Part shown: positions 8,839 to 45,749 of the stretch, piece after piece
Layout of the letters: every line of letters starts with the position of its first letter
Position numbering within the stretch: the first letter of the stretch is position 1
Source of the DNA: Leucoraja ocellata
Lineage: Eukaryota
Length of the DNA stretch: 64,000 bases
Reading direction: 5' to 3'
Assembly (NCBI GenBank): GCA_036785375.1
Contig: JAWMAR010000165.1
Location: 4,588,001-4,652,000 of the forward strand
The notes under the pieces: generated by a model
What the model was told of the DNA's origin: nothing
What the model saw: the letters and a program-made list of their open reading frames with translations, nothing else
The model's database searches: none
Program-made: the position numbers and the translations under genes

Positions 8839-9607
8839 TCAAGCCAAGTCAAGTTTTATTCATCACTTGCACATAAAGTGCAGTGAAATGAATTTGCCAG
8901 CAGCAGTACAATAAAAAAAGAACACACAATACACAAAAAAAATTGAACACAAACATCCACCACAGCATTCATCACTGTGGTGGAAAGCACAAAGTTTGGT
9001 CAGTCCTCCTCCATTTTCCCCTGTGGTCGGAACCACAACCCTCCGTAGTCGGCGCTGCGGGCGTCCAAATGTTCAGACAAGGTAAGTCCAGGTAAGTCCT
9101 GAATCGATGGACCCCGCTCTGGATGGTAAGTCCCCGCCACGCCTACGGTAGAAGTAGGCGGCGGGATGGTGGTCGAAGCTCTTCTCCTCCCGGGTCCCCA
9201 ATGATAGATCCCAGGCTCCGGACGCAGCACCAGCTGGAGCTCTGCAGACCGCGGCCTCAGGCTGCCGCGGGCCAGCGAACGGAGCTCTCCTCTCCAGCGA
9301 CCCCCAGCGAGGGCCCGCCCGCTCCACGACGAAAGAGTCCTCGCTACGCCCGCAGCTGTAGCCCCGGGCGCATCTCTGGGAAAGGCCGCACCGATCCTCG
9401 GTTAGGCCACGAGGGAGTCGATATGGAAAAATTTGCCTCTCCATGGAGCAGGCGACCGAAGCGGTTTCCCCCTTAACCCCCCACATCACCCCCCACGCAA
9501 GACACACAGAGAAACATTAAAAACATACATTAAGACACACTAAAAAAACCAAAAAAATAGAAAAAACTAACATGCTGCAGGCAGGGCGGCTGGCTGGCAG
9601 TGCCCCC
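8839..9607 (-). mobile_element. Non-autonomous GC-rich retroposon with Rex1-like 3' tail (copy 1)
   Basis: Minus-strand 3' end aataaaacttgacttggcttg; homologous to 12237-12905 (acatcca(c/t)cacag..cactgtg(g/a)tggaa, cagtc..cctccatttt, gatcccaggctc, ggaaaggc(c/t)gcacc, gttaggcc); interrupts a CR1. Confidence 0.6.
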
Positions 9608-9874
9608 AATGACACCCTCTGTGTGAAAAAACCTGTCCCACACAGCTCCTTTAAACTTTGCCCCTCTCACCTTAAAGCTATGCCCTCCTTTCATTAACAT
9701 TTCCACCATGGAAAAGGGGTTCTGACAGTCTACCCTATCTATGCCTCTCATAATTTTATATATTTCACCGGGTCTCCTCTCATCTCCGATGCTCTGGAGA
9801 AAGCAATCCAAGTGTGTCCCATCTCACCTTATAGCTTCTAAACCTGACAGTGTTCTGGTATAAACCTCCTCTGC

Positions 9875-9942
9875 GAGGCTCATGTTGTCGACCTCCCCGT
9901 GGTGAGCCCTGTCAACTGACTTCAGTCAGGCAAACGACCACA
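9875..9942 (+). ncRNA. HDV-like self-cleaving ribozyme (family 1, with extended P4)
   Basis: P1 GAGGCUC/GAGCCCU (G1.U wobble, one A.C mismatch); P2 UGUUGUCG/CGACCACA (one mismatch); P3 ACC/GGU; L3 UCCCCGU; P4 CUGAC-UUCA-GUCAG; J4/2 G-CAAA with putative catalytic C9931. Confidence 0.8.
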
Positions 9943-10077
9943 AAAAGAGACAGCAGCAGCACTGCAGCTTGGCGCCAACTCAGAGCATTCACCCTTTTTA
10001 TGGCAGGTACCTATGGATGTCGAACCGGATGGCATCACCCTGCTGCAGACCTCTGCTACCTCAAACGCAAGAAGAAG
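9875..10077 (+). mobile_element. ~200-bp short retroposon headed by an HDV-like ribozyme, (AAG)n tail
   Basis: TSD AACCTCCTCTGC(G) at 9863-9875 and 10078-10090; tail acgcaagaagaag; the 5' end folds as a double pseudoknot. Confidence 0.85.
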
Positions 10078-11449
10078 AACCTCCTCTGCGCCCTCTCCAA
10101 AACCTCCCCACCTTCCTGCATTGGGGCATCCGCAACTGCACACAATACTGCAAATGTGGCCTAACCAAAGTTTTATAAAGCCATTACGTGTGTACATACA
10201 TCCCCTTATCTTAGACTTTGTTGGACTTTGGATAAACCAAGCATTGAACACGAGCCTCTTGGGCATGTGCTACATAAGTAAAAGTCTGTTGTTTCCTTTC
10301 TTGAACTTGCGACCTTTGGCACGTTTTGATCTGTCACCCATGTCGCGTGGATCAGTGTCAGGAGAAGCAGGGTCCTATGCTCACTGAATGCAGATGCGAC
10401 TGAAACATGTGAATATGTTGTTTCATTCCCTCCAAGACTTGAACGAAAGAATACCACAGAAGCAGGTCATGTTCTGCAGACTGACACAGTGAAATATGAA
10501 TGAGCCTCCTTGCTAGTTGCCACTATCAATCCCTGGTCTACCTGCACATTTACTGGAAGTCCAATGTAAATTGCATTAAGCCATGACTTCAATTAGAGTG
10601 TATTTATTAGGTCTTGACTGATTGAGGACTTTACTACATGTGAACCCCTTCCAAATATCAGGGACCAAAGTTCCTCCTCCCAACTAACAGGGCAATAAAT
10701 CGAGTCTCTGGCAGGAGGATAATTGGATATAGCATATTACCAGACGCACCAATCTGTGCATAGAACAGCTTGCAGTAAATGGAGGCCTGGAGTACTCCAG
10801 GATAACTTTATATTTAACAATGGAAAATCGATCCATCAAAATCTTGGCGACAATTTCTTTCATGCTTTAGCAATGGTGAATGTGCTAACCATTAATGACC
10901 AACTTAATGCTTTTTCAGAAAGCTACGAAAATCATTAGATTCATCAATGCCAGTTCCAAAAGCCCCTCCTCAGTCACAGCTGAGTGTTTTAGGCATGGGG
11001 ACCGTATTTTCCAGTCTTTCCATGGTATGTATCGTTTATATCCTAACCTAGTTCGACTTCCCAAAATACATCAACTTGCACTTAGATGGATTAAATTAAT
11101 CTGCCATTGCTTTACCTGATTTACCAGCTGATCAATATAATTCTGTGTCCTAAGATTTCACTTACTAATCATTCTTACGACATTCTCATTATGTCAGTGA
11201 TCTACGTCAGAAATAGTGGCATTCCCAGAATTGAACCAATGGTGCACGACTGGTTATAGGCCGGGAGTCACAAAAAAGCCTTCCGTCATCACCTTCTTCC
11301 TCCCATTGCCAAGCCAATTATGGGTCCAATTTGCCTTCTGGACCAGCATTTGAATGTTGTATCATGCATGAGGCCTGATTGATGTTTGTGTAGATTACCT
11401 CAACAACATGTACTGAATTGTATTTATATTGCTATTGGTTTATTATTGT

Positions 11450-13988: not shown

Positions 13989-14732
13989 ATGTTATTTAAC
14001 ACAATGGATTATCTGGGGTTCATCATTAACTCAGTTCACATGTCAGTGACATTGCCGAAAGAAAAGGTTACAGCCTTAATAGAGGCTTGCAGCAAAATCA
14101 TTGACATCACTAAACCATCCATCAAACTGGTAGCAAGAATAATTGGCAAAATAGTGGCTGCGTTTCCAGTTCGGACCTTTACATTATCGAAATTTACAGA
14201 GGGTTAAAATACGAGCACTCAAACATTTATGGTGGTCATTTTGACAATGAAGCTACCAACAGAGGCCATAATGGAACTAAAATGGTGGAAAGATAACATT
14301 AGGCATTGTTCCAATCCAATCATTGTCAGCAACCCATCTATGGTACTACAAACTGATGCCAGTGCACTTGGTTGGGGTGCTACCAATTCCATCTCCAGCT
14401 GTGGGGGAGATGGAATGCACAGGAGGCACCATTATTACAAACACTGTGCATAAACTACCAGGGAATGTTAAGTGCATTCCATGGCCTTAAGTCATATTGT
14501 TCTGGGTTATATCGCCAGCATGTTAGATTACAAATTGACAACACCACCATGGTAGCATATATCAACCATATGGGTGGAAACAAATCGACATCATGTGACA
14601 ACCTGGCCAACACAATTTGGCAATAGTGTACCCAGAGAGATATTTGGATATCAGCTACCTACTTACCAGGTAAACTAAATTTAGTGGCAGACAGTTTAGT
14701 GGTCATGCAAATTCAATGAAAACACTGAATGG

Positions 14733-15140
14733 ATGTTGGATAAAAATGTATTTGCTGAAATTACAGCACGGTATGGAACACGAGATATCGACCTATTCGC
14801 ATGCAGGCTCAATCACCAGCTATCGAATTATGTTTTATGGGAACCAGACCCTGGGGCAGCGGCGACAGATGCATTTTTGCTGCATTGGGGGAAATTGTTT
14901 ATTTATGCATTCCCTCCTTTCTGCCTCATCAGTCGGGTATTAAATAAAATACAGCAAGACTCTGCGTCTGGTATTTTGATAGTACACGATTGGCCTACTC
15001 AACCATGGTTCCCGGTGATACTCGACATGGTATTAGAACCATGCATCACCATCCATCATAGACCTAATTTACTGGTTCATCCCGCAACAAGGGAAAGTTA
15101 CCCATGTCATAATTATATAAACCTATTAACTTATAGAGTT
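14733..15140 (+). pseudogene. DIRS Dam-like adenine methyltransferase (MT) domain at the end of the RT-RH frame
   Basis: DIDLFACRLNHQL...DAFLLHW...YAFPPFCLISRVLNKI...WPTQPWFP, open across the domain. Confidence 0.85.
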
Positions 15141-16050
15141 GAAAGCACCTCTACTATACCTGGGACTGACGGACCGAACAGTGGAGATTATTTCAGTGGC
15201 CCACAGGCAGTTCACCAAAAAACAGTACTTGGTGTACATCAAGAAATGGGAAATGTACTGTCACGACAATAACATCACCCACAGATCTATGAACACCCCG
15301 TCTGTTCTGGAATTCCTGGCAAGCCTCCATTACGACGAGGGGCTCAGTGCCATCAACGGCGCCAGAAGCGCTCTGTCAACATACCTGTGGCAAGGAACAG
15401 AGCGGCATTCTGTTGGGACACACCCCCTGGTAACCAAACTCATGAGGGGCATTTTTAATGTTAATCCGCCAAGAACCACGTACTCCCAAATATGGGATGT
15501 GAGCATTGTACTGATGATGTGTGTAAGAATCTGGTCTCCAGCTACAGCTCTGTCCCTACAGAAACTGACTATGAAAAGAGTCATGCTGATGGGCTTGGTC
15601 ACGGCACAAAGGGTCCAGTCGCTACAGAAACTAAGGCTGGACAACATGACTATTTCATCTGGAAATGCAACTTTTCACATCACTGAATTAGTCAAACAGA
15701 ACAGAACGACAGCAGGCCTAAAAACAGAATTCAGGGCCTACCCGACAGATCATCGTCTCTGTATTGTAACACACTTACTATTATAAATGGAGTATACCAA
15801 GATCACCAGAGGCAAAGAAATGTCACTTTAATCAGTTACAAACAGCCACTCAAAACAGTGACAGTCCAGACCATCTCTAGATGGCTAATACAGGTCCTAA
15901 TAAAGGCTGGAGTAGACACTAGCATTTTTAAATCTCACACCACCAGGGCTGCAGCTACATCGGCAGCTATGAAGTGGGACGTTCCTATGGACCAAATCCT
16001 CAAAACAGCAGGATGGTCAACGGAGGAAACTTTCCAATGACTTTATAACA
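15139..16050 (+). pseudogene. DIRS tyrosine recombinase (disrupted)
   Basis: ORFs 15139-15786 and 15858-16040: SAM-like N-terminus (LSAINGARSALS), catalytic-type R (TAQRV), HxxR (SHTTRAA), AGWS; internal stops. Confidence 0.88.
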
Positions 16051-26518: not shown

Positions 26519-29043
26519 AATAGTAAGATTAAACGAGAACTTACCAGTTTGAAGTTTGATCGTTATTTTATGATGAGTAACGTTGAGGGATTATGTGAAG
26601 CACCCTGCCAGGAAGCATGCGTGTCATTCTTCAAAGCAGCGGTGTGAAATCACAGATAACTGTAATGACTAAACATAGTAAGATTAGAGAAGAGATACCA
26701 GTTGAGTATAGTATATGATCAAAGGTGGGAGCGGAGGGCACGTAATCCCTCAACGTTACTCCTCATAAAATATCGATCAAACTTCAAATTGGTAAGTTCT
26801 CGTTTCATCTTACTATTTTACTTCGGAGTCACGTGATGACTACGTGAAGATTTTAAAGCTCTGTGATTTCATGCCGTGGAAACGAGTCCATGCATCACAT
26901 CTGCCTTGATGACTGTAGGAGGAATTGTGTCAACATAATTTAGACATGAATCCGACATTGAAATCCATGAATTGATTAACACGAATTATAGCCCCTATTT
27001 ATGGGGTAATTAAATTACAGAACTTAAATTGTTTCTGCAAATGTTCCAGCTTTAATGACTGGTTTATGATAAAATAGTTGGAGTGTTTTTTCCCCTGACC
27101 ATCCTGCTGCCTTGAGGATTCTGCATTGGTACATCCAACTGCATTGCTGCCGATGTAGCTGCAGCCCTGGTGGAATGAGATTTAAAATATTATTATCCAC
27201 CCTAGCCTGTGTTAGAACCTGTTTCAGCCATCTTGAGATGGTCTGGACCGACATTTTTTTGTGTGGTTGCTTAAGGGTGACTAAAAGTGCCTTCTCATTG
27301 CCTCTGATGATTTTCGTTTTCTCCATATATAACGACAAATGTTTTACTATACAGAGATGATCATCTGTTAGGTAAGACCTAAATTTGATATTGAGGCCCG
27401 CTGATCCCTGTCTGTTCTGTTTCACTAATTCATAAATATGAAACGTAATGTTTTCAGATGAAGAAGCCATGTTGTCCAGTCTTAATTTATGTAATGACTG
27501 TACCCTTTGTGCCGTGACCAATGCCATTAGCATGACTGTTTTTAATGTCAGTCTTTGTAGGGACAGAGCTGTTGCTGGAGACCAATTCCTGAGCATCTTC
27601 AGGACAATACTCACATCCCATATTTGGGAGTACCTGGTTCTTGGGGGATTGGTATTAAAATTCCCCTCATAAGTTTTGTTACCAGTGGGTGAGTTCCAAC
27701 AGAGTGACGCTTGCCATAGATAAGCCGATAAGGCACTTCAGGCGCAGTTGATGGCACTATAACTGTGGCCCTCATCATAATGGAGGCCTGCCAGGTATTC
27801 CAGAACAGACGGGATGTTCATATCTCTGTAGGTGATGCTGTTTTTGTGACAATACATCTCCCACTTCCTGATATTGACCAGATACTGTTTTTTTGGTGGA
27901 CTGTCTTTGGGCCGCCGAAATCATATTCAATGTTCGGTCCGTCAGTCCCTGCTGTAGTAGAGGTATTTTTAGACTCTACGAATTAATAAATTCAAATAGT
28001 TATGACATGGGTGGCTATCCCTTGTTACGGGATCAACCAACAAGTCTGGTCTATTCGGGATGGTGATGCATGGTTCTAATACCATGTTCATTATCACTGG
28101 GAACCATGGTTGAGTAGGTCAATCGGGTACTACCAAAATACCAGACGCAGAGTCCTGCTGTATTTTCCTTAATACCCGACTGATGAGGCAGAAAGCACTG
28201 TGCAGCCCTACAAGATGTGCTGCTGTGGGTTTTATATAGAGCCCACAGTGACTCGACTCCATCTCCCGGAGCCTGTCACGTTGGAGCAAATGCTCCACAC
28301 ACAGCTCCATCCGGCTCCAGCGCTCACAGTCGCTGGCCGCCCGCGGCTGCTCAAAGTCGGACTCCTCTGAGTCCATGACTTTGATAGTTTTTTGTCTTGC
28401 CTTCCTGCCCGGCCGCGTAGTGGATCTGGCCGGTGCGGAGGCGACATCGGACACAGCTGATCCCATTATAGGTGATTCAAGTGCCGCTGGCTGCTGTTAG
28501 CCCACCAGCTTTGTCGCAGCCTGTTGGTTTCTGCACCTGTAATCAGCATGGGAAAACACAAAAAGATCGCAGCTCTTACCTGCAGGTCTTGGTTTAAATT
28601 GTCGTTACGGGGGAACGTCGTTCCACCCCGCCTCCTGCCGTTTTCGACTTGTCAAAAGTTGGCGGCCCCATCTGAATAGTCTCCCGCCCGGCCATGGTGT
28701 TCTGGCCAGCGCGGGACCAAAAGTCGGCACAGCTGATCCCACTTACGGGGCTTGTGCCTTCAGCTGCTGCTGGCTCCCGCAACTTCGCGGTCCTCCCCAG
28801 CCAGCTTCACTCGCAGCACTTGTGGACACTATTTTGTCCAGCTTCCCCCCCTGTGTAAAAAACAGTGCGGGGACAAAAACTACCGCAAAGTAAATCACTT
28901 ACCTGCAGGTCGCGGTTTCAAACTTACCGCTGCGGGGGAACGCTCCACCCCGCCTGTCATTTCGCAAGCGTGAAAGCGATATGACACGCATGCATCCTGG
29001 TGGGGTTCTTCATGTAGTCACTCACGTGACTCCGAAGTAAAAT
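26519..29043 (-). mobile_element. DIRS1-type copy C, 2.5-kb internal-deletion derivative with both termini, nested antisense in the RT of copy B
   Basis: Left terminus at 29043-28980, ICR 26739-26850, right terminus 26519-26630; YR ORF 27024-27614; gag-MT junction at ~28197. Confidence 0.93.
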
Positions 29044-43076: not shown

Positions 43077-43130
43077 GTGGTGGAAGATTGCAACCTTCAC
43101 GTGGTCCGCCCTGTTTCGACTAATGCAAAC
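43077..43130 (+). ncRNA. Minimal (54-nt) HDV/CPEB3-like ribozyme
   Basis: P1 GUGGUGG/CCGCCCU; P2 GAUUGCA/UGCAAAC; P3 ACC/GGU; L3 UUCACGU; G; P4 U-UUCG-A; J4/2 CUAA with putative catalytic C43120. Confidence 0.8.
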
Positions 43131-43211
43131 AACTCGACGTGTACAAATGGAAGATCAAATAGAATAAGTTGTCCAACAACCTTAGGATGTGCACGCCACA
43201 CGAAAGAAGAA
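43077..43211 (+). mobile_element. ~135-bp short retroposon headed by a minimal HDV-like ribozyme (family 2, copy 1)
   Basis: TSD GAAGTGCTTT at 43065-43074 and 43212-43221; tail acgaaagaagaa; homologous over its full length to 45612-45749. Confidence 0.85.
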
Positions 43212-43226
43212 GAAGTGCTTTAGAGG

Positions 43227-45611: not shown

Positions 45612-45749
45612 CTTCTTCTTGCGTCTGGCGTACACAGCTTAAAGTTGTAGGACAACTTGTTCCATCTGATCTTATCTGATTGTGCATGCCAGATTGATTG
45701 CATTTGTCGAAACAGGGCAGACCACGTGAAGCTTGCAATCTTCCACCCC
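45612..45749 (-). mobile_element. ~138-bp short retroposon headed by a minimal HDV-like ribozyme (family 2, copy 2)
   Basis: TSD T(C/T)TGATGGGAT at 45601-45611 and 45750-45760; minus-strand tail acgcaagaagaag. Confidence 0.85.
45696..45749 (-). ncRNA. Minimal (54-nt) HDV/CPEB3-like ribozyme
   Basis: Minus strand GGGGUGG AA GAUUGCA AGC UUCACGU GGU CUGCCCU G UUUCGA CAAA UGCAAUC; perfect P2, fully paired P1 with G1.U, one G.G mismatch in P3; putative catalytic C at 45706. Confidence 0.8.

Follow-up and report, generated by a model that had tools for sequence, protein, structure and literature searches.

A short skate retroposon with a predicted HDV-like ribozyme head: probable origin from an Ingi/Vingi-type LINE and a possible relation to the CPEB3 ribozyme

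Introduction

A short insert in the genome of the skate Leucoraja ocellata begins at the first nucleotide of a predicted HDV-like ribozyme and ends in an (AAG)n tail, which raises the question of where such an element comes from and how it spreads. HDV-like heads have been described before on short non-autonomous elements, namely NARTc, the SIDERs and the R2 SIDEs (PMC4035085, PMC3383444). NARTc is 263 nt long and has its first 77 and last 30 nt in common with the LINE L1Tc, and its ribozyme cuts just before position +1 (PMC3383444, PMC4035085). The equivalent heads of L1Tc, NARTc and SIDERs are active in vitro (PMC4035085, PMC3383444), the R2 SIDEs have kept an HDV-like head (PMC4035085, PMC3414825), and a review states that some non-autonomous SINEs in diverse metazoans use HDV-like ribozymes (PMC6765202). 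No Vingi-type ribozyme-headed element in a comparable genome was found in the searchable literature, and the supplements of earlier primary papers may list such elements. The initial annotation of the skate insert proposed a promoter-independent SINE-like element that its own ribozyme cuts out of read-through transcripts. Our analysis leads to a different parentage, and to a family of LINE heads that resemble the mammalian CPEB3 ribozyme.

Anatomy of the element and its predicted ribozyme

The insert consists of 203 bases on the plus strand (positions 9875-10077) of the window, by which we mean the whole 64-kb stretch of DNA that was analysed (Table 1). The initial annotation had reported a flanking TSD and a terminal (AAG)n tail in a host CR1. 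The TSD is an exact 12-bp repeat and the tail runs to 10077. On the minus strand, the flanks encode CR1-like sequence, presumably the C-terminus of CR1 ORF2. No empty insertion site was present among the loci examined.

All HDV elements that had been listed for the insert were located in the sequence in the correct order: a 7-bp P1 with a paired purine at +1, P2, a 3-bp P3, a 7-nt L3, the G of P1.1 and P4, with C9931 present as the catalytic C of J4/2. The two mismatches noted before are real, one in P1 (position 2) and one in P2' (position 65), and the window copy also carries an A instead of a G after the catalytic C. A strict HDV descriptor, as suggested in the initial annotation, gave two sites when both strands of the 64 kb were scanned, at 9875 and 43077, both of them heads of repeat families; the match goes beyond chance. 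The Rfam model RF02682 matched exactly at 9875-9941 with 30.0 bits, and the scores of this type of head (30.0-32.8 bits) lie under the cut-off of 44; no Rfam match of gathering level was obtained in the 64-kb window. Minimum free energy folding did not recover the pseudoknot (z -0.99), as is expected of a program that handles no pseudoknots.

Table 1. Coordinates of the element, its predicted ribozyme, its surroundings and related loci
Feature	Position	Strand	Basis
5' TSD, 12 bp	9863-9874	+	exact repeat of 10078-10089
3' TSD	10078-10089	+	exact repeat of 9863-9874
Predicted HDV-like ribozyme, single-P1.1-pair type	9875-9942	+	layout, weak Rfam match, descriptor, family consensus
Predicted cut site, 5' of G9875	9875	+	ribozyme layout
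Predicted catalytic C9931	9931	+	ribozyme layout
P1	9875-9881	+	stem layout
J1/2 (A9882)	9882	+	layout
P2	9883-9890	+	stem layout
P3	9891-9893	+	stem layout
L3	9894-9900	+	loop layout
P3'	9901-9903	+	stem layout
P1'	9904-9910	+	stem layout
G9911 (P1.1)	9911	+	layout
P4	9916-9929	+	hairpin layout
P2'	9935-9942	+	stem layout
Remaining 5' UTR of the parent LINE	9943-9958	+	comparison with parent LINE
Point of the 44-48-nt deletion, in-frame LINE start codon lost	just after 9958	+	comparison with parent LINE
First codons of the parent-LINE ORF, ending where the endonuclease domain begins	9959-10048	+	comparison with parent LINE
Final 29 nt of the parent LINE, beginning just past the stop codon, including the (AAG)n tail	10049-10077	+	comparison with parent LINE
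Host repeat broken by the insert, CR1-like	9600-9862, resuming 10090-10190	-	minus-strand translation
Family 2, ~140-bp element with minimal, nearly P4-less HDV-like head, (AAG)n tail and TSDs	43077-43215	+	descriptor and copy search
Family 2, second copy	about 45612-45749	-	descriptor and copy search
ORF fragments, DIRS-type-like	14700-15786	+	sequence likeness
ORF fragments, DIRS-type-like	27024-27737	-	sequence likeness
CPEB3-like loci, several families	L382-L445 (e.g. L441:4500-4574; L439:4001-4071)	- (both examples)	RF00622

Copies, consensus and decay of family 1

The element belongs to a dispersed family (family 1), whose copies show TSDs and a simple-repeat tail, the hallmarks of retroposition. 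The genome contains 722 exact matches to a 16-mer of the tail (reversed control 0) and 603 to a 16-mer of the head (control 1), copies of the parent LINE included in both counts. Of 1667 first-look candidates 40 were scored, and these are 89-91% identical, with two exceptions, the window copy itself and a 99% duplicate of its locus. This twin (L002, G000:C165:4388324-4388526) has the same flanks and lies ~210 kb away; a family-2 copy is likewise twinned ~210 kb off (L104), and the twins represent either a segmental duplication or an uncollapsed haplotype.

The initial annotation had asked whether 5' ends pile up at G1, and this is the case: when copies were retrieved with a query from the 3' part of the element, 25 of 30 started within 2 nt of G1. 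A tail sample ordered by position gave a start within 3 nt of G1 in 17 of 24 non-LINE copies, some of them duplicates of one insertion. About 22 of 30 copies are flanked by a direct repeat of at least 9 nt, and the upstream flanks of the insertions are unrelated to one another.

A consensus was built from 76 copies with distinct flanks. Nothing upstream of G1 is conserved, and all 18 positions of P1, P2 and P3 are paired; a consensus that extended upstream, or that lost this pairing, would have spoken against the ribozyme reading. The window copy diverges by 8.4% from the consensus (family mean 4.9%), so that its two mismatches and its A-for-G change are explained as decay of this particular copy. 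Decay is widespread, since all pairs and core bases are intact in just 20 of 66 copies with a full head, the catalytic C is kept in 51 of these 66, and ribozyme and body mutate at about equal rate. With so few intact heads, and heads that decay as fast as bodies, the majority of copies have probably lost activity. In a single raw polyA RNA run (X24), of which about 6% was read, 39 reads matched a near-consensus copy, from both strands. Ten of these cross G1 upstream into varied flanks, which means that uncut read-through RNA exists; no pile-up of read starts at G1 is listed for the part of the run that was read, and another alignment of RNA reads gave a similar picture.

The parent LINE

The origin of the element became apparent from its tail. 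Six of 30 loci in a tail-anchored sample have just the last ~29 nt in common with family 1; upstream of this stretch they continue as an RT ORF with a terminal Cys/His motif. When 20 such LINE loci were extended, 16 proved to carry the family-1 head, starting at position 1-2, and two more matched from position 91; many of the 20 represent one amplified insertion, and the independent heads are those of L202, L205 and L301. Head, tail and TSD are all present in L205, and the LINE is 3.02-3.06 kb long from head to tail where this was measured (~3.1 kb). The three independent heads and the amplified insertion begin with an A instead of a G; the initial A of L205 may belong to the TSD. All copies of the parent LINE that were examined are broken. 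The loci L195-L201, L203, L206-L210, L212 and L293-L321 (except L301) all hold this single insertion, which has been copied many times along with its flanking DNA, mostly on short contigs, a pattern that points to a large repeat of tandem or segmental type.

Compared with this LINE, the element consists of LINE positions 1-84, a gap of 44-48 nt with which the in-frame ATG was lost, ORF codons up to element position 174, and the last 29 nt of the LINE. Two deletions separate the element from the LINE, one of the piece with the start codon and one of ~2.8 kb of the ORF. It is thus built entirely from the two ends of a single autonomous LINE and has no ORF, which is the make-up of a bipartite non-autonomous LINE. 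A second, independent short derivative (L328) has the same head and keeps the piece that is deleted in family 1.

The parent LINE encodes APE and RT. Its APE codons begin ~220 nt from G1, which leaves no room for an ORF1. No RNase H was found in the parent's own C-terminal 228 aa (L173), nor in any of 24 relatives of about 970-1050 aa with the domain order APE-RT. Vingi elements are described as the sister group of Ingi with a single ORF and without RNase H, and Ingi elements as having RNase H (PMC13708176). A single ORF without RNase H matches the Vingi description, and on its domain content we refer to the parent as an Ingi/Vingi-type LINE. An RT tree, which holds no named Vingi or Ingi, separates the parent-type LINEs from other LINEs of this genome that we take to be Nimb-like and Rex1-like.

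Ribozyme heads on related LINEs

A scan of metagenome records retrieved 79 loci of related LINEs. With a relaxed descriptor, a head was detected upstream of the ORF start in 10 of 28 related LINEs, three of which (L250, L252 and L253) are one insertion, and seven of the 10 were at the score cut-off; among the controls, none of the 28 reverse strands and none of 140 shuffles gave a head. The other 18 loci had no descriptor match. A covariance model applied to eight of these 18 recovered heads at four (L238, L261, L266 and L271) and found none at L214, L223, L229 and L233.

The initial annotation had called for a check of covariation in P1 and P2. Nine heads from about five lineages were aligned without a structural model; these rows are few and related, and that of L230 is misaligned in P1. 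Across them, 93.7% of cells are paired, and both sides change at 13 of 18 pairs, with compensatory changes in P1, P2 and P3. The covariation score was 0.748, compared with 0.233 for shuffled alignments (0/500) and at most 0.156 for slid controls. G37, C57 (the catalytic C of J4/2) and A60 (the A that follows it) are invariant in all nine heads. The fold thus covaries across related LINE heads.

The type of head tracks the RT tree, as L280, with a head like that of family 1, groups with the parent LINE (support 100/99). This sister position to the parent-LINE group may reflect slow evolution of the head or horizontal transfer. Heads with the P1 of family 1 occur on related LINEs in metagenome records at L274:2879-2951 and L280:2888-2960.

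Mode of propagation

We consider it highly probable that a ~3.1-kb Ingi/Vingi-type LINE of the same genome gave rise to the element as a bipartite non-autonomous derivative, with a predicted HDV-like head that likely cuts its RNA free from longer transcripts at G1. The head and tail shared with the LINE, together with both deletions, identify it as a bipartite non-autonomous LINE like NARTc and not as a SINE; the SINE-like element that had first been proposed is therefore replaced by an internal-deletion derivative, and not a SINE with an origin of its own.

By analogy with the work on L1Tc, NARTc and SIDERs, from which we infer both cleavage 5' of +1 and mobilisation in trans via the common tail, propagation may proceed as follows. 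A copy would be transcribed within a host or neighbouring transcript, and its head would fold co-transcriptionally and, as predicted, cleave 5' of G1. The LINE protein would then bind in trans to the 29-nt tail, the putative recognition site for the LINE reverse transcriptase, nick DNA by means of its endonuclease and reverse-transcribe the RNA at the nick, which would yield TSDs of ~10-12 bp and the (AAG)n tail. Inserted copies would afterwards decay neutrally.

A possible but less probable alternative is that the head doubles as an internal Pol II promoter and that cleavage does no more than trim or refine the 5' end. In L1Tc and NARTc the first 77 nt do perform both jobs, as ribozyme and as the internal promoter Pr77 (PMC3383444), and the unrelated flanks of the insertions suit an element that carries its own promoter. 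The related heads, however, vary widely in sequence and keep their pairing, which fits selection for the folded RNA better than for a motif in the DNA, and a promoter function would supplement cleavage at G1 without displacing it. We consider it improbable that the fold is a catalytically dead relic, or a 5' structure for protein binding or protection, with transcription start at G1 setting the 5' ends. The score of the head under the Rfam cut-off and the RNA reads that pass G1 uncut would agree with such a relic, but the consensus is free of defects, and the catalytic C and the A of J4/2, the bases of L3 and the G1-U pair have been kept over LINE lineages whose RT is ~43-70% identical to the query. 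It is scarcely credible that the element is a true SINE that arose independently, or derives from an RTE, and has borrowed a LINE tail: an RTE family of this genome also ends in (AAG)n and RTEs are the usual source of bipartite elements (PMC5786205), but 12 RTE loci show no similarity beyond chance 11-16-mers, the element holds no tRNA (ARAGORN 0), no exact A or B box (just A/B-like words with two mismatches, in line with the initial annotation) and no Rfam match of the Pol III SINE-head type (tRNA, 7SL, 5S), and its head, which is the 5' end of the parent LINE, and its tail both match one APE-RT LINE.

Bipartite elements of this kind have several known counterparts. NARTc, RIME and the SIDERs, of the L1Tc-ingi clade in trypanosomatids, likewise combine a LINE 5' end with an HDV-like head and the last ~30 nt of the LINE. 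Unlike these, the skate element resides in a 3.44-Gb animal genome, has a parent without RNase H and an (AAG)n instead of a poly(A) tail, and its activity is predicted only. Vingi LINEs, as characterised in PMC5786205 and PMC13708176, are similar to the parent as compact single-ORF APE-RT elements without RNase H that yield bipartite non-autonomous copies. R2 SIDEs and the RTE-derived bipartite elements (Bov-A, RTE-N) also arose through internal deletions that keep the 5' and 3' ends of a LINE; they belong to other LINE clades, and the skate element, in contrast, is not site-specific for rDNA and is dissimilar to the RTE loci of its genome. The element is thus a known, NARTc-like design in a new host, by which the Vingi-type clade joins the ribozyme-headed LINEs. 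A ribozyme head in this clade bears on how the 5' end of a LINE is set, and on gene-writing platforms built from Vingi elements in which the native 5' UTR is retained (PMC13708176).

Relation to the CPEB3 ribozyme

The head of family 1 resembles the CPEB3 ribozyme (RF00622) in its 7-bp P1 with G1-U, 1-nt J1/2, 8-bp P2, 3-bp P3, 7-nt L3 and GUCA-type J1/4. The CPEB3 ribozyme differs in being a single, conserved, intronic element of its host, whereas the LINE heads are mobile and present in many copies. A closer resemblance was encountered in the metagenome records. L252, a full-length related LINE with a TSD, has a head (2778-2851) that scores 55.6 bits on RF00622 (cut-off 35) and matches 35 of the first 37 core positions of this model by manual count. 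L250 and L253 are the same insertion, also with 55.6 bits, and L276 is a truncated copy.

Searched with RF00622, the skate genome yielded 59 scored loci, of which 56 exceed the gathering cut-off (35 bits) and the best reaches 64.7 bits; none of 14 prokaryotic genomes had a hit over the cut-off. Instead of occupying the mammalian location in intron 2 of CPEB3, these loci head dispersed repeats whose upstream flanks are unrelated, and in many of them a LINE ORF comes next. Many are the heads of full-length LINEs that belong to one sister subclade. The largest family heads full-length LINEs of 3.13 kb with TSDs (L441, L443), whose RT groups with L252 and L276 (support 99/98). The head of L419 is followed by the start of an APE, and that of L427 by similar LINE-like sequence. 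An old family of 11 loci, or about eight insertions (including L439, L440, L412, L420, L424 and L432), matches the Rfam consensus, including P4, at ~59 of 64 positions when the L4 loop is set aside (manual count), with one compensatory change in P2. Five of the 11 loci (L420, L424, L429, L432 and L435; three insertions) adjoin inverted ORF fragments that are most like the L441/L252 group, which would be the pattern of 5'-inverted insertions.

From these sequence matches, the CPEB3 ribozyme is likely an exapted LINE 5' end. Convergence is unlikely, since stems vary freely among the other heads and RF00622 does not report the heads of family 1, family 2 or L230. The CPEB3 ribozyme is reported from mammals only (PMC8233481), and the human genome holds an ancient Vingi trace, X12_LINE (PMC5753468). 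Together with the LINE context over several diverged lineages, this makes the direction from LINE to intron the likely one. In general terms, an earlier suggestion is that intronic HDV ribozymes were co-opted from mobile elements (PMC7761336); a specific link between LINEs and CPEB3 was not found in the searchable literature, and supplements of the primary papers or Rfam hit lists may already hold matches. The broader proposition, which we favour on balance, is that animal Vingi-type LINEs and the miniature elements derived from them generally carry HDV-like ribozyme heads, and that the CPEB3 ribozyme arose by exaptation of the 5' end of one of these LINEs. If it is true, the relatives in this genome, that is, the full-length LINE heads and the old family near the CPEB3 consensus, represent the origin and the missing outgroups of the CPEB3 ribozyme. 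Near-identical mobile LINE heads would supply such outgroups for reconstruction as well as natural variants of the ribozyme. The near-copies of the CPEB3 ribozyme on these sister LINEs likely show the source of this memory-linked RNA.

A further short family of ~170-190 bp (L430 and L434, heads at ~312) ends in an AAG repeat and has CPEB3-like P1, P3 and L3.

Other elements in the window and its genome

The second descriptor site in the window heads a separate, shorter family (family 2), of which the genome holds 1139 exact matches to a 17-mer of the tail. In all 30 tail-anchored copies the 5' end falls within 5 nt of G1, and no parent LINE for this family was present among these 30 loci.

A search with PF14529 retrieved a two-ORF LINE as a candidate parent of family 1, and it proved not to be the parent. 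This young LINE (loci L073-L102), with open frames of up to 1268 aa, is one that we take to be Nimb-like. The ORF fragments at both DIRS-type-like positions in the window (Table 1) are presumably pieces of a DIRS-type RNase H and tyrosine recombinase.
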